Notes under the pieces: model-generated
The model's database searches: none
What the model saw: the letters and a program-made list of their open reading frames with translations, nothing else
What the model was told of the DNA's origin: nothing
Shown here: piece by piece, positions 6,858 to 32,739 of the stretch
Layout: each line of letters opens with the position of its first letter
How positions within the stretch are numbered: position 1 is the first letter of the stretch
Sequence record: OZ335964.1
Reading direction: 5' to 3' (one strand)
From: a phage
Length of the DNA stretch: 64,000 nucleotides
Position numbers and translations under genes: made by a program

Positions 6858-8348
6858 ATGGCAGATTTGAAACATGGATCTACTGTAGGTGGATCTCCCA
6901 TTTGGACGCAAGGAAACTTGACGATCCAGCCAGCGGGTGATCAGCTTTTCTACAAAGGTCATAAAATCTATACCGCTTTTGATAAACCTTCGGCTGCCGA
7001 TTTTGATGCTGTTAGTGCATCCGAAGGTGGTACATTTCAGAAACTGGTCCATTTTGAGGAAGGTTTAAGCGTAGGTAGCGCATCGGCGGGTGAAACCAAA
7101 AAGAATGGTATCTTTAAAGGCCAGAGTGATGCTGCTAATTTTGACGGTGTAAGCTGGGGTTTGCATTCATGGAAGTCAATCGGCTTTGTTAATGCCCGTG
7201 ATGGCGTTATCATGGCGTATATTGACACCACAACGGGCGAATTTAAGTCTAAAGGGACTATCGAAGGGACAACCATTAAAGACACAGGTCAACGCGTCTA
7301 TAGCCCTGTTAATAAACCAACGAATAATGATTTAGATTTGGTGTCTCGTCGCGGTGATACCCTCACAGGAACATATAATTTAAACACTGTCACTGTTAAA
7401 CTATCGGTTGATTCGAAATTAATTGCAAGGGAACGTGATTTAATTAATTTTGATGCGACTAAGATCTATTATGGTAACGTTCTTGATACGTTGGTCTTCC
7501 GAAGTAAAGATGAGCCTACCATTTTTGTTAATGGCAAAGAAGGTCGTTTTTATCACACCAACAATAAACCAACTAAAGCCGATGTTGGACTAGGCAATGT
7601 CACCAATGATGCACAGGTTAAACGTGCTGGTGATATTATGGAAGGCAACTTGCAAGCGCCTAGAATGCTGGCGACAAACGATCCTGCTGGTCCTAATGAA
7701 TTGGTTCGTTTGAGCTACTTTGAGAAAAAATCAATGGTAGCAAATCCAACCATCATTGGAAACGTTGATTGGAACACTCTTATTAATCGCGGTATCTATC
7801 GTGTGGAAAATGCTGGATCAGGTACTAATAAACCGTCTGATAGCTATTATAACGGCGTTTTGATGGTATATCGCCCAGAAGATGCGGTCGGTACTCGTCG
7901 AATTGTTCAGGTGTATTATCCTGAATCTATTGACCATCCGATGTGCTGGCGTTCTTGTTCTAATGAATCGTGGACTGCATGGAACTATGTAGATCACCGT
8001 AAATTAGCCGATATTCGCTATGTTAACGTAACTGGCGATACCATGACAGGACCGTTAACTGTTCCGGCTGCAAATGGAGTTAGAACGGCTAAAACTAACT
8101 ATAATGGGGATAATTGCTATGCGGCTTTAAGTGGTGCTGATGGCACTGCTATGATTCACCGTATTAGTGATATTAAAGGGACCGAAAAGCTGGGGATCAC
8201 CCACGACTCAAAGGTCGTGTTTTTCCGTTCTAGAAACAATACTCAAACCGTAGACCGCTATCAGCTTTATCATGAAGGTAATAAACCAACTCCGGCTGAT
8301 GTTGGCGCAGTTCCACTTAATGCGGTGATTGATTTTGGTACTTTCTAA
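6858..8348 (+). CDS. 36: long tail fibre distal hinge subunit gp36
   Basis: 496 aa; N-terminal MADLKHGSTVGGSPIWTQGN block shared by T-even gp36/gp37 N-termini; larger than T4 gp36. Confidence 0.7.
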   Translation: MADLKHGSTVGGSPIWTQGNLTIQPAGDQLFYKGHKIYTAFDKPSAADFDAVSASEGGTFQKLVHFEEGLSVGSASAGETKKNGIFKGQSDAANFDGVSWGLHSWKSIGFVNARDGVIMAYIDTTTGEFKSKGTIEGTTIKDTGQRVYSPVNKPTNNDLDLVSRRGDTLTGTYNLNTVTVKLSVDSKLIARERDLINFDATKIYYGNVLDTLVFRSKDEPTIFVNGKEGRFYHTNNKPTKADVGLGNVTNDAQVKRAGDIMEGNLQAPRMLATNDPAGPNELVRLSYFEKKSMVANPTIIGNVDWNTLINRGIYRVENAGSGTNKPSDSYYNGVLMVYRPEDAVGTRRIVQVYYPESIDHPMCWRSCSNESWTAWNYVDHRKLADIRYVNVTGDTMTGPLTVPAANGVRTAKTNYNGDNCYAALSGADGTAMIHRISDIKGTEKLGITHDSKVVFFRSRNNTQTVDRYQLYHEGNKPTPADVGAVPLNAVIDFGTF

Positions 8349-8352
8349 TTTT

Positions 8353-8380
8353 AGCGGGGATTATCTCCCCGCTTTTCTAA
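8353..8380 (+). terminator. stem-loop / partial terminator after gene 36
   Basis: AGCGGGGATTATCTCCCCGCT hairpin followed by TTTTCT. Confidence 0.5.
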
Positions 8381-8418
8381 ATAATATTATTCTAATAACC
8401 GTTTAAGGATTTTATAAA

Positions 8419-11049
8419 ATGGCAGATTTAAGCAGAATCCAATTTAAACGCACTAGCACTAAAGGCCGTCGACCTGATGCTGGTACGATGAATCCGGGGG
8501 AATTGGCAATCAATCTTGCGGATCAATATCTTCTTACTAAAAATGATTCCGGTGCTATTATCAATTTAAGTTGTCCTCCGGTTTATGACCGTGATGTTAC
8601 AATGGCGGGTAAAGTTAAAGGAAATAATTATATTTTAAGTAAAACCGCTAACTATCTGGAAGATCAGACAGCGCGAGATCTTAACTACTTTGGTGCTTTC
8701 CGTACCAATGGTCTTGATGGTTTTCTCGAACTCACGCTAAACGTTCCTCATTCTTCTGGTGTTCAGCATGGTCGAGGATTTACTTTCCAGTATGGACACA
8801 CAGGAAACCGTGTAGAAACTTATGGTTATAATAAAGAAGGACAAAAAGCATTTAGTTATAAAATGTATCACGAAGGTGATAAACCAACTCCAGGAGAATT
8901 GAACGTCTATAGCAAACAAGAAATTGACCGTATGTTTGTGAAAAACGTTAAAATGTCTGTTCCTTCCGGTGACGCAACTCGTGGTTACTTTAAGATCGCG
9001 ACCGCAATGATTCCGCAGAATGGTCGAATGGCATTTTTACGAATTTACGGCGGAAACGGATATAATGTTAACTCCTACGACCAGGTTGATTTCCTTGAAA
9101 TTGTGATTCGCGGTGGTAATAATAACCCTAAAGGTGTTAGTATTGCTGCATATCGTCGAAATTCTTTGAACGTACATGAGGTATTTGCAATTAATACTTC
9201 CGGTGATAACTATGACATTTATGTTAACTATGGTCGTTACACCGATAACGTTATTGTCGAGTTTGGAAAAACTGTTGATGTTGCATTGACTGTTCATGAT
9301 GTTCCTGAATTTTCTGCGACTAAACCAGCAACCGGAACTAAATTTGATGCTCGTGTTATTACGATGTTCAACACCGAAAACAAAGCCGGAACGTTGATGT
9401 TTGATAATAACTCACAAGCAACCTATGATATTGTGAGCCTTAATAACGTACCAGACAACAATAAAAAATATATGCGTAAATTCCGCAGTCGTGCGGCGGA
9501 AACAATATGGCATGAAACTGTTCAAGGTGATGTGTATCGTTTGGCTACTGGTTCTACCGACCAAAAAGAAGTATTAAAAATTGTTGGTAGTGATGGTTTA
9601 TTTGTCGATAGACTTCATCTGCAAGGCAATAACGCGATTCGTATGTGGCGTCCTACTGGTCGTAGTAACTATTTTGAATATATGGATCAGCGAGATGGTG
9701 CTAATAAGCGTCAAGGTTGGTTTGGCTTTGGTTCTATAGATACTAACGATTTTCAATGGTATAGTGACGAAGGTAAAAACTTTGTTAAGCTAGAAGCAAG
9801 TGGTCAAGTATCTTTAAGTACTGGTGCGACCAAAATTGTATACACTAATGGTCAATATGTAGCTGCCAATTCTGATGCATACCGTATGATCTTTGGTAAT
9901 TACGGTGCATTCTGGCGTAATGACGGCACTAAAGTTTATCTTCTTTCTACGGCTGAAAATGATAAATTTGGTGGCTGGAATACCTACCGACCGTTTATCT
10001 ATAATTTAGTATCTGGAAACGTTGATTTGGGTGGTGATACCACAGCCTCCGCATTGACCTTAGAAGGTGCAAGCAAAACCGCTCGATTTGGTGGTCATGT
10101 TTATACAGGCGGTAACTTACATAATACAGGTCAGTATATAACTATGGAGGCCGGACTTGCTGGTCAATCAATGGATTATATTCGTTTTAACCATTGGGGT
10201 AGTAGCAGCACCGGACGAAATAACATCTTGTATGTTGAAGACAGCAAAGGTCGTCATTTTTCTACCGAACGTTCTTCCACAGGAGCACTTAAAGCTGACT
10301 TTTTAGGTGAACTCGAAGTTGGTGGTAAGCTGACATGGGGTAAGGGTACAGCTAAATCCTCGTTTAACTTACGAGTGTGGGGCAATGATTCCCGTAAACA
10401 AGTGTTTGAATGTGCGGACGAAAGCGGTTGGCATTTCTATACCCAGCGTGCGGGTGGTCCTGGAACTAATGTAATTGAGTTTAACGTAAACGGTAGGATT
10501 ACTGTTCCTGAATTATATGTTGGTACTGCTGCATCAATATCTAAAATCAATGGTGCTTTTGGTGTCGGTACTACTAATGGATTAGGTGGTAGTTCAATTA
10601 CTCTGGGTGATAGTGATACTGGCTTTAAGCAAAATGGCGATGGCAACCTTGATGTTTATGCTAACAACGTTGCAGTAATGCGTTTTACTTCTGGTGCGAT
10701 TACCGCAAACAAACAATTGAACGTATCTGGTCGTGTTAACCCGTCTGATTATGGAAACTTTGATGGTCGTTATATCAAAAAGACCAGAGGATGGACTAGA
10801 ATATGGACGGGTACACTAGGTGGGAATACTCAGACCGGAACATTGCCTCAAGACCTTCGCTACCGTAACGTGTGGATCGTAATGGCTGATGGATTTAAAA
10901 ACTTCTTCCGTTTTGGTGATGACGGTACTTATTATCTGTCTGGTTATGGAGGTTGGATTAAAATGCAACTTCACTCTAGTGGTAAGATCTTTAAAAATAT
11001 TCAAGACCATTATTGCGTTCCTCGCGAAATTTGGGTTGAAAACGAATAA
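8419..11049 (+). CDS. 37: long tail fibre distal subunit gp37 (receptor-binding fibre)
   Basis: 876 aa; conserved N-terminal MADLSRIQFKRTSTKGRRP..GELAINLADQ block; C-terminal ~150 aa divergent, no His-rich T4-type tip. Confidence 0.8.
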   Translation: MADLSRIQFKRTSTKGRRPDAGTMNPGELAINLADQYLLTKNDSGAIINLSCPPVYDRDVTMAGKVKGNNYILSKTANYLEDQTARDLNYFGAFRTNGLDGFLELTLNVPHSSGVQHGRGFTFQYGHTGNRVETYGYNKEGQKAFSYKMYHEGDKPTPGELNVYSKQEIDRMFVKNVKMSVPSGDATRGYFKIATAMIPQNGRMAFLRIYGGNGYNVNSYDQVDFLEIVIRGGNNNPKGVSIAAYRRNSLNVHEVFAINTSGDNYDIYVNYGRYTDNVIVEFGKTVDVALTVHDVPEFSATKPATGTKFDARVITMFNTENKAGTLMFDNNSQATYDIVSLNNVPDNNKKYMRKFRSRAAETIWHETVQGDVYRLATGSTDQKEVLKIVGSDGLFVDRLHLQGNNAIRMWRPTGRSNYFEYMDQRDGANKRQGWFGFGSIDTNDFQWYSDEGKNFVKLEASGQVSLSTGATKIVYTNGQYVAANSDAYRMIFGNYGAFWRNDGTKVYLLSTAENDKFGGWNTYRPFIYNLVSGNVDLGGDTTASALTLEGASKTARFGGHVYTGGNLHNTGQYITMEAGLAGQSMDYIRFNHWGSSSTGRNNILYVEDSKGRHFSTERSSTGALKADFLGELEVGGKLTWGKGTAKSSFNLRVWGNDSRKQVFECADESGWHFYTQRAGGPGTNVIEFNVNGRITVPELYVGTAASISKINGAFGVGTTNGLGGSSITLGDSDTGFKQNGDGNLDVYANNVAVMRFTSGAITANKQLNVSGRVNPSDYGNFDGRYIKKTRGWTRIWTGTLGGNTQTGTLPQDLRYRNVWIVMADGFKNFFRFGDDGTYYLSGYGGWIKMQLHSSGKIFKNIQDHYCVPREIWVENE

Positions 11050-27180: not shown

Positions 27181-28572
27181 TCAAATATAGTCTACTCGAT
27201 ACCGCGCACGGGTAACACCCACATATAATAACTGCATTGCCAATTCAAAGTCAACATTGTCTGTACACATGCAAGGAGTATACAGGAACACGCGGTCTAC
27301 GCTTATCCCTTGTGACTTATGAATGGTGCAAGCTGGTAATGCTTTTACATTCAAGAACATACGTTTCATCGTCCAGAAGGAATCCCAATCTGGTTTAAAT
27401 TTTGGATTCTCTTTCTTCATTTCGCGATATTGTCCGGCGACCGTATTCAGATAGATAGAGAAAATGTTCTTCTGACGTTGTTCTGTCAGAATGTTGATTT
27501 CTACTAAATCCGGTTTATCTGTAGTGATTCCGACTGCATCTAAACCGACTTTCTGATTTAGGATTTCTTTGTCTTCGTCATCATCGACGCTTTCCACTTT
27601 CAGAGTATAGCCTAAAACTGGTTGCGGATCTACCCCTGTGCAACGTAATGTAAATTCGCGCGGGATAACCTCTTTAACTCGGATCATCTCACCATTGTTA
27701 AAAATAACATTGGGAATCTTCTTCCCGCGTTCATCTCGCAGATATTCGATCAACGGTTCCTGAGTAACCAGAATTTCATCTACAATCACTGGTTCATCGG
27801 TGTTATAAACGCGCTTACGCACAATTTCATTGAGTTTTTCGACGCTCTTGTTAGTGTAGGCCAGAATACGGTTTTCCAACAAGTCTTCCGGCGTTTTAAC
27901 AGCTTCAAAATAATGTTTCATGAACTCTGGCAGCGTTGAGCTATGGAATACACCCTCGTTGTCGCACTGCTTTTCGAATACCCATTTACCGTTACGGACA
28001 GCAGTCGCCACATCAATTATTGGCGCATTAGATCGTTTAATCTCTGTAAGTTCTACATTCTGGAACCTTTCATCTGTGAAGAAAGGAGAGATCGACGTTG
28101 CACCGCTCGGATCAACTGGTCGTAACTGGTACAGATCACCCACGGCAATAATAACAATTCGACCGTTGATACTCTTCATGAGAATATCAAATAGTTTCTT
28201 ATCGACCATACTCGCTTCATCAACAATGATGATCTGAACATCATCTAGCTTAGGAGTATCTTTTTGTTCAAATACTTGAGTATCTTCATAGTTGGTTGGA
28301 TTTAGTCGCAGTAGTGCATGTAAAGTAAATGCTTGACGACCTACCGCCTTACTCAAAACTTTTTTAGCCTGGTGGGTAGGCGTTGCCAAAACCACACCAG
28401 TTACACCACGGCGGACCATTTCCTGGACAATGAATTTCATCATTGCGGTTTTACCAGTACCCGCCGCACCACGGACAGTTGTATGCTTCTTTTGTTCAAT
28501 GCGTTTCATTAGAACATCAAAAGCATGTTTTTGTCCGTCTGTCAACATATCGAAAGTTAATACTCTGCTCAT
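27181..28572 (-). CDS. dda: Dda DNA helicase (SF1)
   Basis: Walker A GAAGTGKT, Walker B IIIVDEASM, and C-terminal block LYVGVTRAR. Confidence 0.85.
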   Translation of the reverse strand: MSRVLTFDMLTDGQKHAFDVLMKRIEQKKHTTVRGAAGTGKTAMMKFIVQEMVRRGVTGVVLATPTHQAKKVLSKAVGRQAFTLHALLRLNPTNYEDTQVFEQKDTPKLDDVQIIIVDEASMVDKKLFDILMKSINGRIVIIAVGDLYQLRPVDPSGATSISPFFTDERFQNVELTEIKRSNAPIIDVATAVRNGKWVFEKQCDNEGVFHSSTLPEFMKHYFEAVKTPEDLLENRILAYTNKSVEKLNEIVRKRVYNTDEPVIVDEILVTQEPLIEYLRDERGKKIPNVIFNNGEMIRVKEVIPREFTLRCTGVDPQPVLGYTLKVESVDDDEDKEILNQKVGLDAVGITTDKPDLVEINILTEQRQKNIFSIYLNTVAGQYREMKKENPKFKPDWDSFWTMKRMFLNVKALPACTIHKSQGISVDRVFLYTPCMCTDNVDFELAMQLLYVGVTRARYRVDYI

Positions 28573-28886
28573 TATCCTAAAATCCTCACCTTGCGAACAC
28601 AGATAGTATTGAGTTCTCGCCGTACCCGTTCTTTTTCATATTCAGGAATTTTGTATTCTATACCATCCCGAACAATTTCAGAAGACCGGATTATACCAAA
28701 TTTTCGTTTAGGCACAACCTTGTATTTCGGTTCACCTGCCAATAGACTCTCACAATAATCTATCTGATCACACATTGACGCTAAAGCTGCATCATGTGTT
28801 TCGCAAGTTAGGACGCGACCTTTCGCGTCCACTGAGTATTGAAAGAATCCGTCTTTATCACGATAACATACAGCAAATACATGCAT
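28572..28886 (-). CDS. hypothetical protein (104 aa)
   Basis: TAATG overlap with dda start (translational coupling). Confidence 0.5.
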   Translation of the reverse strand: MHVFAVCYRDKDGFFQYSVDAKGRVLTCETHDAALASMCDQIDYCESLLAGEPKYKVVPKRKFGIIRSSEIVRDGIEYKIPEYEKERVRRELNTICVRKVRILG

Positions 28887-29641
28887 TATAAACCTACCTT
28901 CGCTTTCATCAATTCAATCCACGACGCATCAATCGGAAGCCCGTATTTCACGCGTTCTTTTTGTGCTGGCGTTAAGTTCTCATACTTAGAAAGAGATTCA
29001 ATCAAAACGCTGGTATATTTTAGCACGATTTCGGTATTGTTTGCAATAGCCTTAAGTTTTTCCTCTTTCTTGTTGATTTCGCTAAGGGCTTGCTTGAGAT
29101 CTGCAATTTTCTGATAACGTTCTTCCATACGGAAGAGAGTATTTTTAATCGCTCGCTCGGCTGCCTCTGCTTTCTCCGGTTCGTTGTGCTTTTTGTGGCG
29201 CTCGATTGCTAATTTCTTTTCTTCGATTGCCATTTCCTGATTTTTGATGCGATTCTCGTTAAGTTCGATCCACTCTATGTACTTCGCACGTAGGGCAATT
29301 TCATCATCAGAAAGTTTACCGTTAGTTCCTAGTTCTTGGATCTCTTTAAGAGATTCGATAGTGTGATTACCACGGAAAGAATTGTATTTCAGTTTAACCG
29401 GAATCACATTTCCATCAACATAGCCCAGATTGCAATCAATGCGCTCTAAGGAGAGTCCATCATCACCTTCACCAAACTCCTCACCTGAATATGCGCAATG
29501 AGTCTGGCGATAGATGTTACGCACAGTGACTAAGCTCATAGAGAAGTCTTTGTTACGACGAGAAGCGCCAGCCATGATAGAGTTCAAACGGAAAACAACC
29601 AGCGCCAATTCTTCGTTAGATTTAAAAGCAAACAGTTTCAT
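28886..29641 (-). CDS. hypothetical protein (251 aa) with long coiled-coil and degenerate HNH-like motif
   Basis: AAGGAG SD; CAYSGEEFG...LERIDCNLGYVDGNVIPV..NSFRGN resembles an HNH core lacking the catalytic His; E/K-rich helical C-terminal half. Confidence 0.5.
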   Translation of the reverse strand: MKLFAFKSNEELALVVFRLNSIMAGASRRNKDFSMSLVTVRNIYRQTHCAYSGEEFGEGDDGLSLERIDCNLGYVDGNVIPVKLKYNSFRGNHTIESLKEIQELGTNGKLSDDEIALRAKYIEWIELNENRIKNQEMAIEEKKLAIERHKKHNEPEKAEAAERAIKNTLFRMEERYQKIADLKQALSEINKKEEKLKAIANNTEIVLKYTSVLIESLSKYENLTPAQKERVKYGLPIDASWIELMKAKVGL

Positions 29642-29702: not shown

Positions 29703-30206
29703 TTAAATTAAAGAAAATTTGTAAATCTCTATCAGGTCGCCATTGCACGCGTAAACTTCCTCGATCTCATCAAGGATCATGGTCGTCCCTGTCTTGTATA
29801 TGCACTCGCGCTCATCCGCCAACATAGCATACAAAGACAGTCGAGTAGTCGGATTGTCATACTCTTTAGACACCACTCGGTCTATAGCATGTTCGTAATA
29901 ATTCATGCAAGGCTTGGTAGGTTTTATTGCAATAATCTTTCCTGTTGCATAAACATCGGTTGCAAAGTCCTCTGCTGTTGATTGTAGTGGCGTAAAGCTC
30001 ATAGGACGCTCTACAACGAAAGAATCACCTACAATTAAGGTATCCAGCTTACGGCCTTCTCTTTTGCTCACACCGCGATACAAGGCTTCGTGATGCACTA
30101 ACCGTTCAGTCTTTTCAATCAATCCATTAAGGATCGACATATCGATATTTTCTTTAGAGTTCATCACTTCATCAATGATGTTAAGTTCTTCTGGTGTGAA
30201 TTGCAT
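29703..30206 (-). CDS. hypothetical protein; possible ADP-ribosyltransferase (ModA/ModB-like)
   Basis: Y-R-G (R44), S-T near 70-77, E-R-E (132-134) spaced like an R-S-ExE ART triad; sits where modA/modB lie in T4 (upstream of dda); unverified. Confidence 0.35.
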   Translation of the reverse strand: MQFTPEELNIIDEVMNSKENIDMSILNGLIEKTERLVHHEALYRGVSKREGRKLDTLIVGDSFVVERPMSFTPLQSTAEDFATDVYATGKIIAIKPTKPCMNYYEHAIDRVVSKEYDNPTTRLSLYAMLADERECIYKTGTTMILDEIEEVYACNGDLIEIYKFSLI

Positions 30207-30239
30207 AATAAAAAAGCCTCCAATCTTTCGACGGGAGGC
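30207..30239 (-). terminator. rho-independent terminator whose stem supplies the SD of the next gene
   Basis: Minus-strand hairpin GCCTCC..GGAGGC followed by TTTTTTATT then ATG. Confidence 0.45.
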
Positions 30240-30324
30240 ATAATAAAACCATTATAGAGTAGTGTCAATCACAAAGTGTATGTGATCTATAAATAAGTTT
30301 GCTAGAACTAAAGGAGACCACAAA

Positions 30325-31254
30325 ATGAACTATAAACGTATTTATGATAACCTGATTGAACGTGCTAAGACTAGAACTATCGACGGATATACAGAAAAGC
30401 ATCACATCATACCACGTTGTATGAATGGAAGCGATGATGATAGCAATCTAGTTAGACTCACCCCAGAGGAACATTACATTGCTCACCTTCTGTTAGTTAA
30501 GATTTACCCAGATAACAGTAAATTGGTTTATGCTGCAAATATGATGTGCGTTTCTTCTGATTCACATAATGGAGAAAGACAGTCAAATAAACGTCATGGT
30601 TGGTTGCGTAGAAAAATGGCAGAGGCACATAGTAAAAGAATCCGCGATAGAATGGAGAACGATCCTGAATATAGAGCTAAGGTTTCGGAATGGGCTAGAA
30701 AAATGGGTAAAGCCATGAAAGGAGTTAAGCGAGGACCGGAATTTAGCAGAAAGTTGGCAGAAAGAAACAGAAATACCGTGATGAAAGAAGAAACTAAACG
30801 TAAAATCGGGGAAGCCAACAAAGGAAGGAAACGTACAGAAGAATATAAAAGAAAACATAGTGAGCGGTATAAGGGTGAAGGTAATCCGATGTATGGTAAA
30901 CGAGGAAAGGAACATCCGGCATATGGTACTAAACCGTGGAACAACCAAACATCATTTGTTGAGCAGAAAGCATGGTGGCGGTTCGCTGGCATGTTCTATG
31001 ACTGGTATCAGATGGATATTGACCGTGGGAAACATAAACGCCACGGTCATAAAAGAATGCTTGATGAATTGGGTTTTGTTGGTTGGCGAGAAAAAGAGCC
31101 AGCCGCAGCAAGACGATCAATTGAAATGTTTGCTAAAGGCTGGAATCCTTATGAAGACCAAGAATGGTTAGATTATATTAATACCCGCTTTCCAAACGAC
31201 GATAGTTTTCCGCGTTCTTCAACATATACAAAACAAACAAATCCTTTGCAGTAA
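30325..31254 (+). CDS. HNH homing endonuclease with NUMOD3-like repeats (opposite strand)
   Basis: EKHHIIPRCMNGSDDDSNLVRLTPEEHYIAH HNH motif; repeated GxxNxxYGK motifs; AAGGAG SD; only plus-strand gene in the early region. Confidence 0.8.
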   Translation: MNYKRIYDNLIERAKTRTIDGYTEKHHIIPRCMNGSDDDSNLVRLTPEEHYIAHLLLVKIYPDNSKLVYAANMMCVSSDSHNGERQSNKRHGWLRRKMAEAHSKRIRDRMENDPEYRAKVSEWARKMGKAMKGVKRGPEFSRKLAERNRNTVMKEETKRKIGEANKGRKRTEEYKRKHSERYKGEGNPMYGKRGKEHPAYGTKPWNNQTSFVEQKAWWRFAGMFYDWYQMDIDRGKHKRHGHKRMLDELGFVGWREKEPAAARRSIEMFAKGWNPYEDQEWLDYINTRFPNDDSFPRSSTYTKQTNPLQ

Positions 31255-31696
31255 GACCTAATGCTAGGAATTTACACATAATAAAATGGAGTTGGTCCAC
31301 CGCCTCTAGGTATGTTTCGAGACGATCCGCCTCTGGCAAATCACTAAAGAGGCGGTTTCGTGCTTCCATGTGATTTGCTTTCCAGTGTTTCCATACCGCG
31401 CTCGCGTCCTTCCCGTTAGACATTCCACCTAATGCAGTATACAATTCTCGTGTTTCGTCGTCAAGAGCATTATCATTCGCTCGAATAAAATCTAAAATTT
31501 CTCCACACGTTTTCAATTCGTCAATTTTTGCTACCCACGGACGGTCCTTAGACACCTGATCCTGTAACGCTTTTTGCATATTCATCATGTGTTGGAACGG
31601 GTTATCACCGTTGGCGATGATTTCTTTATATTTTTCTTCTGCAAAATTCAGAGTTTCCGCATTTACTAAGTGTGCACAAGAATTAAATTCTGACAT
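31178..31696 (-). CDS. 56: dCTP/dUTP pyrophosphatase gp56 (MazG-type all-alpha NTP-PPase)
   Basis: Track ORF trimmed to M3 with GAGGTGA SD; conserved blocks CAHL, ASAVWKHWKA, YMLKNAENY...GY. Confidence 0.7.
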   Translation of the reverse strand: MSEFNSCAHLVNAETLNFAEEKYKEIIANGDNPFQHMMNMQKALQDQVSKDRPWVAKIDELKTCGEILDFIRANDNALDDETRELYTALGGMSNGKDASAVWKHWKANHMEARNRLFSDLPEADRLETYLEAVDQLHFIMCKFLALGLTAKDLFVLYMLKNAENYRRLESGY

Positions 31697-31710
31697 ATTC
31701 ACCTCATTAA

Positions 31711-32739
31711 TTAAAATTTACAATATTTCATAAACCGCATTTTAGCCATCAGACCTTGTACGGTGTTCTCTTTGATATATTCCATGATCTGGTCGCGTGT
31801 AGCGCCCTCGTCCTGAATCATGGCGTTAACGTCTTTAGAATGCCACGGGCAACGGTCCCACAATACAATCTTTTCCCCTGCATTGATAAACTTTTCCAGT
31901 CGGTGCATTGTATCGGCTGACCGTGGTTCCGCATCAAGTACAAACACTCGCTGGTCTGGGAAAGGTATTTCATCTAATCCCAAAGTACCGCCAGTAATTG
32001 CACACCCGTTATCAATAAACAATGAATCGATCGGACCTTCTAAGAAATACACTGGTTTGCTCGGATCGGCGCGTTCAAGACCATAGACCTTACTCGCTAA
32101 CTCATGAGTTTTAATCGTCATATATTTGGTCTTTCCGTAATCCTTTCTCAATGCTCGCCCCTGAATGGATTCTATCTTGTTCTCACGGTTAAAGATAGGA
32201 ATCACTAAACGCGGTTCAGGTTGTGGATTCTTGAAAGTATCAGCTTTAATGTGATTTGCTACCTTTTGCCATTCTCTCGTGAAATACAGAAGATCCCATT
32301 TATCGTGAGGAATACAGCGATCACTAACATACTTTACTATAGGATGATTAGCCGGAAGAGTATCTAATCTCTCGCAGAAAGGCAATGTTTGCACTTTCTT
32401 AATCTCCGGCTTTTCTACCTTTTTCAGTGGCTTGAACGTGGTGTTCTTGTGGTCGCCTTGTTCCTTCCGTCTCTCCATAAGCCATTCCCTGAATAGGTCC
32501 GGCTTATACTGTTTGAGAAATTCACCTAACGGCTGATTGTAGTTACAGTTGAAACAACCACAACGCAAACTATCCTTATAGGTATAGATACGGAATCGCG
32601 CCATTGTGCTATTCTTTTTGGAATCTCCGCAGATCGGACAACTTGCTACTAACGTAAATGAGTTAGTATGTAACCGCTTGAAATTTCGTTCGCCGTATAA
32701 TGCTTTTTCGGCTATTTCATAATCTGCGTAGTAAATCAT
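31711..32739 (-). CDS. 61: DNA primase gp61
   Basis: Zinc ribbon CPICGDS...CFNCNY; TOPRIM blocks (EGPIDSLF, VLDAEPR); GAGGAT SD. Confidence 0.85.
   Translation of the reverse strand: MIYYADYEIAEKALYGERNFKRLHTNSFTLVASCPICGDSKKNSTMARFRIYTYKDSLRCGCFNCNYNQPLGEFLKQYKPDLFREWLMERRKEQGDHKNTTFKPLKKVEKPEIKKVQTLPFCERLDTLPANHPIVKYVSDRCIPHDKWDLLYFTREWQKVANHIKADTFKNPQPEPRLVIPIFNRENKIESIQGRALRKDYGKTKYMTIKTHELASKVYGLERADPSKPVYFLEGPIDSLFIDNGCAITGGTLGLDEIPFPDQRVFVLDAEPRSADTMHRLEKFINAGEKIVLWDRCPWHSKDVNAMIQDEGATRDQIMEYIKENTVQGLMAKMRFMKYCKF

Follow-up and report, generated by a model that had tools for sequence, protein, structure and literature searches.

A short Mod-family ADP-ribosyltransferase encoded upstream of srd and dda in a Krischvirus genome

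Our analysis of a 64,000-nucleotide stretch of phage DNA (sequence record OZ335964.1, hereafter the window) shows that a minus-strand open reading frame (ORF) of 167 amino acids (aa), here called mod, belongs to the Mod family of phage ADP-ribosyltransferases (ARTs), the family of T4 ModA and ModB. The protein has a predicted ART fold and an intact R-S-ExE triad, and its gene occupies the same place in the genome as modA and modB in T4. It is very probably a small, catalytically competent NAD+-dependent mono-ADP-ribosyltransferase, made early in infection, whose substrates are components of the host apparatus for transcription and/or translation; that it is enzymatically active, arginine-specific and produced early we infer from characterized relatives and, for the timing, from the position of the gene and its promoter-like site. 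An earlier note, drawn from the letters of this DNA and its reading frames, had suggested a possible ADP-ribosyltransferase in this 167-aa ORF, which exists as described (its strand had not been given). That suggestion is now supported by a match to PHROG 832, homology to ModA and ModB, conservation of the active-site residues and the predicted fold, and the assignment is solid because it draws on homology and fold evidence rather than on the bare motif.

The relationship to the T4 enzymes is detectable by several independent routes. The protein matches PHROG 832 (“RNA polymerase ADP-ribosylase”) at E=1e-20 and, by BLASTP, T4 ModB with 33% identity over 113 aa (E=8e-11) and T4 ModA with 23% identity over 159 aa (E=2e-6), values to be read on the scale of the 30% identity that ModA and ModB share with each other. 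The sequence cluster that contains mod, the T4 ModB cluster (P0006) and a cluster of 200-aa ModA-type proteins (P0010) carry a common precomputed Pfam tag, PF26816, an accession absent from the local Pfam results. A word-indexed homologue search with the single sequence returned only three close relatives, and a diverse seed alignment followed by an exhaustive search was needed to find more. This profile search of 1.84 billion cluster representatives recovered 222 proteins at E<=1e-3, including the T4 ModB, ModA-type and query clusters. Most are small standalone proteins and some are long and multidomain; of ten distant multidomain matches scanned, five carry the Pfam domain ADPrib_exo_Tox (PF03496).

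Within this family the active site is remarkably constant. The earlier note had read three motifs in the ORF, an aromatic-Arg YRG at R44, an S-T segment at residues 70–77 and an ERE at residues 132–134, spaced like the triad of ADP-ribosyltransferases. The first and the last stand at exactly these residues, and all three motifs are in register with those of ModB, ModA and the Vis toxin. The middle one stood only in its first part: S70-F71-T72 is a conserved S-x-[ST], and S76 and T77 vary within an 11-sequence alignment. Eleven proteins from eight phage genera, with 24–32% identity to the query, all have R44, G45, S70, E132 and E134. Among 46 family representatives, G45, E132 and E134 are found in all, R44 and S70 in 45, and position 72 is T or S in 45, so that the conservation in orthologues on which the earlier note had made its guess depend is indeed observed. 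The triad residues align with those of both T4 proteins (Table 1), as does G45 with ModB G74 and ModA G73. This alignment includes a residue of known function, since the catalytic role of ModB R73 has been validated by experiment: in the R73A(G74A) mutant both ADP-ribosylation and RNAylation were lost, and the burst of the mutant phage was reduced (PMC10468400). When a profile built from the 46 sequences was compared with PDB sequences, the best match was the Vis toxin (4xzj, an NAD+:arginine ART; E=0.0017), whose YRG, TSTS and EAE fall in register with the Mod-family YRG, TSFS and ExE; the EQE of XopAI is aligned likewise.

Taken by itself, the motif is weak evidence, as the earlier note had already judged. 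A permissive triad pattern ([YFW]RG..S.[ST]..E.E, allowing the observed spacing ranges) finds a match in about 0.2% of the window ORFs after shuffling and in 27 of 20,000 shuffles of the mod sequence itself; of the 205 ORFs of 60 aa or more in the window, mod is the only one to match. This background rate, together with a length below that of T4 ModA and ModB and the lack of a direct Pfam or NCBIfam match, is what could be said for a catalytically dead relic or pseudoenzyme, or for a chance motif in an unrelated small protein. Such an explanation is extremely improbable, since every triad residue is kept in members of its clade of short proteins at 62–74% identity as well as across the whole family, the model points confidently to an ART fold, and the protein is maintained at an identity of at least 99% in 57 Krischvirus records (tblastn). 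In its chance-motif version it is effectively refuted.

The fold evidence agrees with the homology. The R-S-E clade of ARTs that contains T4 ModA and ModB also holds the C3, VIP2, Vis and iota toxins. Structure prediction against ART folds, the check proposed in the earlier note, gave an AlphaFold2 model (from a 13-sequence alignment) with a mean predicted local distance difference test (pLDDT) score of 91 and a predicted template modelling (pTM) score of 0.83, for which all of the top 50 Foldseek matches in the PDB are R-S-E-clade ARTs (probability 1.00, best E=4.9e-7), with Certhrax, CDTa, C3, VIP2, iota Ia, ExoS/T and Plx2a among them. Foldseek against BFVD matched nearly the whole chain to a PM2 ADP-ribosylase (TMq 0.93), the ModB of Serratia phage CBH8 (0.91) and the T4-type ModA of Sf22 (0.85). 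A model of the T4 ModB type (pLDDT 89.7) shows the same order of helices and strands as mod from ModB helix 34–45 onwards; it has in addition two N-terminal helices, 5–14 and 18–31, and a low-confidence loop at about residues 142–158.

The genomic position had also been correctly recognized, the earlier note having placed the ORF upstream of dda, where T4 carries modA and modB. The minus-strand order in the window is mod, srd, a dda.1 homologue and dda, and matches the T4 order modB, modA, srd, dda.1, dda. The same arrangement of mod, srd, dda.1 and dda occurs in phages JSE, JS98, STP4-a, phiE142, F48 and Cronus. The number of mod genes in this slot is variable, with two in JS98, one full-length gene each in STP4-a, F48 and Cronus, and in phiE142 one mod plus a short 44-aa ORF annotated as “ADP-ribosylase”. 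No second Mod-type ART was detected in the window by hmmsearch of all 205 ORFs.

A number of observations weigh against the interpretation of mod as an active early ART. Used as a single sequence, it gave nothing significant against local Pfam, NCBIfam or PDB sequences. The local Pfam scan returned only DUF5507 (E=0.13, below threshold), rejected as noise; ADPrib_exo_Tox (PF03496) and ART (PF01129) had no match at E<=1 to mod, T4 ModA or T4 ModB; NCBIfam has no family for any of these three proteins; phmmer against PDB sequences found nothing at E<=10, and a PADLOC scan found nothing. The link to canonical ARTs depends, as a consequence, on profile and fold evidence, and the link to PF03496 is transitive through distant matches. 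Nevertheless, the missing direct Pfam match is a limit of sensitivity or of the library common to T4 ModA and ModB, and is no argument against the ART fold. The mod protein is also devoid of the two N-terminal helices and the ~15-residue loop of the ModB type, an absence that, judging from the models, could alter or reduce substrate binding. The putative promoter of the gene is a consensus match only, and no biochemical work on this protein or on any of its closest short relatives was found in the searchable literature.

Table 1. Positions in the window of mod, its predicted active-site codons, its candidate expression signals and the neighbouring genes.
Feature	Position	Strand	Evidence and remarks
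Mod-family ADP-ribosyltransferase gene (mod), 167 aa, ATG start	29703..30206	-	ORF, PHROG 832, BLASTP, identical annotated proteins, ART fold; syntenic JSE gene named “modB”
Y43-R44-G45 codons	30072..30080	-	Aromatic-Arg motif, read off the sequence
R44 codon (L-Y-R-G; R of R-S-ExE)	30075..30077	-	Would bind NAD+ phosphates; aligns with ModB R73, ModA R72, Vis YRG
S70 codon (S-F-T; S-x-S/T motif, NAD+ pocket scaffold)	29997..29999	-	Aligns with ModB S99, ModA S96, Vis STS
E132-R133-E134 codons (ExE)	29805..29813	-	E134 putatively catalytic, E132 putatively for arginine acceptor specificity; aligns with ModB E171/E173, ModA E163/E165, Vis E-A-E, XopAI E-Q-E
Sigma-70-type promoter-like site	30240..30268	-	Candidate early promoter: TTGACA (30268-30263), 17 nt, TATTAT (30245-30240); 11/12 consensus match only
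Hairpin followed by U6	30210..30239	-	GCCUCC(C)-loop-GGAGGC (30239-30216), then U6 (30215-30210); directly follows the promoter-like site
Shine-Dalgarno sequence GGAGG of mod	30217..30221	-	Within the 3' arm of the hairpin, 10 nt before the ATG
srd	28886..29641	-	PHROG 1400, E=7e-74
dda.1 homologue	28572..28886	-	Pfam Phage_Y01A, E=7e-21
dda	27181..28572	-	Dda SH3 domain and AAA_30
HNH/NUMOD3 homing endonuclease, 309 aa	30325..31254	+	PHROG 655, E=4.5e-78; Pfam NUMOD3
Gene 56	31178..31702	-	
Primase gene 61	31711..32739		
Homing-endonuclease-like ORF, 187 aa	32747..33310	-	Pfam HNH_3, NUMOD4 and HTH

By analogy with the chemistry of R-S-E ARTs and with T4 precedents (PMC2988021, PMC3014915, PMC10468400), a mode of action can be proposed. 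R44 and S70-x-T72 would hold NAD+, E134 would stabilize the oxocarbenium-like transition state once nicotinamide leaves, and E132, the first Glu of the ExE, would direct the ADP-ribose onto the arginine guanidinium of a host protein. The enzyme would most likely appear in the first minutes after infection, and it would modify the host transcription and/or translation machinery in favour of the phage. Early expression is most likely because mod forms part of an early “host-takeover” block with srd, dda.1 and dda and is preceded by its own strong sigma-70-like promoter sequence. Candidate targets are Arg265 of the RNA polymerase alpha subunit, if the enzyme is ModA-like, or ribosomal protein S1, EF-Tu and trigger factor, along with the use of NAD-capped RNA, if it is ModB-like; T4 ModB modifies these three proteins and accepts NAD-capped RNA (PMC10468400, PMC3014915).

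The place of mod within the family bears directly on the choice between these targets. In a neighbor-joining tree of 54 family members (200 bootstraps), it falls in a clade of short proteins of 161–176 aa (P0002, P0003, P0018, P0022 and P0029) with 93.5% support, separately from T4 ModB and from the clade of T4 ModA; support stays below 20% at all deeper nodes. T4 ModA groups at 100% with P0010 and P0011, and mod lies outside this group. For two of the short proteins, P0018 and P0029, the closest relative in a cultured phage is that of Krischvirus, at 40–47% identity. From these data, mod is a bona fide member of the Mod family, for which neither the name ModB nor RNA polymerase alpha as the target is justified.

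An orthologue of ModB, with S1, EF-Tu and trigger factor as its ADP-ribosylation targets and perhaps the ability to link NAD-capped RNAs to ribosomal proteins (RNAylation), is a possibility to be entertained only tentatively. Besides the family-level traits common to mod and the 207-aa T4 ModB (PHROG 832, the PF26816 tag, the R-S-ExE residues and a slot near srd, dda.1 and dda), mod is closer to ModB than to ModA, with 33% versus 23% identity in local matches and ~28% versus ~24% over the alignment; its S-F-T is identical to ModB S99-F-T101, where ModA has S-A-S, and JSE and many other records use the name modB. By contrast, the tree does not group mod with T4 ModB, the nodes that join the two having less than 20% support, and other records label the same protein modA or “ModA or ModB”. 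The first helices of ModB (residues ~5–31) are missing in mod along with its loop, and the full ModB architecture cannot be restored by a longer reading frame, as there are no in-frame starts between the preceding stop and the ATG and no upstream extension is possible. Lineages with a single mod gene are, in addition, common, which suggests that the split between ModA and ModB may post-date the short clade or be independent of it.

It is equally doubtful, and in our view slightly more so, that mod acts like the 200-aa T4 ModA, the ART of RNA polymerase alpha Arg265, by ADP-ribosylating this residue in both alpha subunits and shutting down host and early transcription. The alignment with T4 ModA does span both the R and the ExE motifs, mod adjoins srd as T4 modA does, and related records carry the product name “RNA polymerase ADP-ribosylase”; this, however, is a generic RefSeq label also given to ModB. 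Although it shares the family and the triad, ModA shows the lowest identity of all the comparisons (24%); its N-terminus is longer, and it groups in a different clade. Moreover, the alpha-Arg265 function could be covered in Krischvirus by Alt and an extra Alt-like ART.

These additional enzymes are known from JSE, which carries, outside the region corresponding to the window, alt (683 aa) and an adjacent ART of 274 aa (JSE sequence 8967-11018 and 8064-8888, respectively, both on the minus strand). The 274-aa protein, which is no Mod protein, is paralogous to the catalytic domain of Alt (31% identity to residues 413–593 of T4 Alt, E=5e-23). The ART set of Krischvirus thus consists of Alt, a short Alt-like protein and one Mod, versus Alt, ModA and ModB in T4. 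T4 Alt itself (682 aa, packaged in the head) resembles mod in being a phage R-S-E ART of PHROG 832 (a profile of length 1480, of which mod matches 1268–1423), and differs in its large N-terminal part and in being injected together with the phage DNA; it is barely picked up by the Mod profile (hhalign probability 5%). A further scenario, which we consider unlikely, can be drawn: the short clade, made up of the Krischvirus protein and its relatives from uncultured phages (P0018, P0022 and P0029), would be a third functional type of Mod that has lost the N-terminal helices and acts on targets unlike those of ModA and ModB, the RNA polymerase alpha role being left to Alt and the Alt-like 274-aa ART.

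An ART with some other target, be it a protein of host defence, a toxin protein or, as for the Scabin/pierisin-type R-S-E enzymes, a nucleic acid, is still less probable. In its favour, specificity is not readable from the sequence, the distinctness of the short clade and its lack of N-terminal helices would fit such a role, and phage ARTs directed against host defences, such as AcrIF11, are described (PMC12421852). We retain the general interpretation of mod as a Mod-family enzyme acting on host transcription and/or translation. The bacterial R-S-E toxins (VIP2, iota/CDTa/CPILE-a, C3, Certhrax and Vis) differ from it by their sequences, with 8–20% identity, and by their organization, mod having no secretion, translocation or binding domain; it would be a cytoplasmic early protein of the phage and no exotoxin. 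Outside the small standalone proteins, Mod-profile matches occur in five to eight separate stretches in each of P0036, P0038, P0043, P0049 and P0079, giant proteins of 2000–7000 aa, conceivably polyvalent proteins or toxins in which ART-like segments are repeated. Family members are also filed under Escherichia coli (P0012, 157 aa) and Enterococcus faecalis (P0014, partial), and may be prophage or contaminant sequences.

The window derives from a Krischvirus, an RB49/JSE-like coliphage. The 6.5 kb around mod have 95.6–98.1% identity to 20 Krischvirus genomes among the matches listed, including JSE, G37-3 and ECD7, and all 59 records matching this region fall in a 95–99% identity band. In the RefSeq record of JSE (NC_012740) the syntenic 504-nt gene is modB, “RNA polymerase ADP-ribosylase”, and the counterpart in Shigella phage JK32 is an “ADP-ribosylase / ModB ADP-ribosylase”. 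With the mod protein as query, tblastn found 491 phage records in which features under the matches are named ADP-ribosylase, ModA or ModB; a 100% identical protein is encoded by ECD7, W115, Skers and UPWr_E1, annotated in all of them as ADP-ribosylase or ModB. Labels in Krischvirus GenBank and RefSeq records are inconsistent, ranging over modB, modA, “ModA or ModB”, “ADP ribosylate ribosomal protein”, “RNA polymerase ADP-ribosylase” and hypothetical. In Klebsiella phage F48, a small ORF beside mod, at a position of the T4 modA.2 type, is wrongly annotated as ModA of the molybdenum ABC transporter. The gene names in these records are transferred labels and no demonstrated orthology.

The identity of mod as an ART is thus already known, being annotated in dozens of RB49/JSE-type genomes, and our analysis carries little weight as a discovery, as the chemistry of the family is well established from T4 and the protein is already labelled in databases. 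What is mildly new is limited to the separate clade of short proteins and to the lack of support for the name ModB. The value of the analysis is one of quality control: to a guess made from motifs it adds the support of homology, of conserved residues and of the fold. A minimal Mod of 167 aa could also serve groups working on ADP-ribosylation and RNAylation as a compact enzyme for probing the parts of ModA and ModB responsible for substrate choice.

The short region upstream of mod contains potential expression signals. The sigma-70-type site (Table 1) would be a candidate early promoter, and its TTGAC core fits the preference for G at -33 reported for RB49 early promoters (PMC1524935). Promoter-like sites in the region, 10 versus 8.1 +/- 2.3 expected from shuffles, are not above the shuffled level. 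The hairpin that follows has a folding energy of -15 kcal/mol (z=-2.8), and 2 of 200 shuffles fold as well. It was not reported by a terminator scan, probably since its outer loop exceeds the 8-nt limit of the scanner; direct folding shows it. Both promoter hexamers and the whole stretch from the hairpin to the ATG are identical in JSE and JK32, the latter without the neighbouring homing endonuclease gene. A transcript starting about 7 nt past the -10 would begin inside the 5' arm and would leave the ribosome-binding site of mod free, and transcripts reading through from upstream would form the hairpin, with termination or masking of the ribosome-binding site as a possible outcome. On sequence grounds, the hairpin and U6 look like a combined terminator and masking element, of a kind known for some T4 genes.

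That homing endonuclease gene is inserted in the interval separating mod from gene 56, in the orientation opposite to both, and shares 77 nt with gene 56 where the two genes meet at their 3' ends. JSE has it too; in JK32, which lacks it, 70 bp separate mod from gene 56, and the homology breaks just upstream of the -35 hexamer of mod. A second and different homing-endonuclease-like ORF, of 187 aa, is situated immediately upstream of primase gene 61, at a place where JSE has small hypothetical ORFs.
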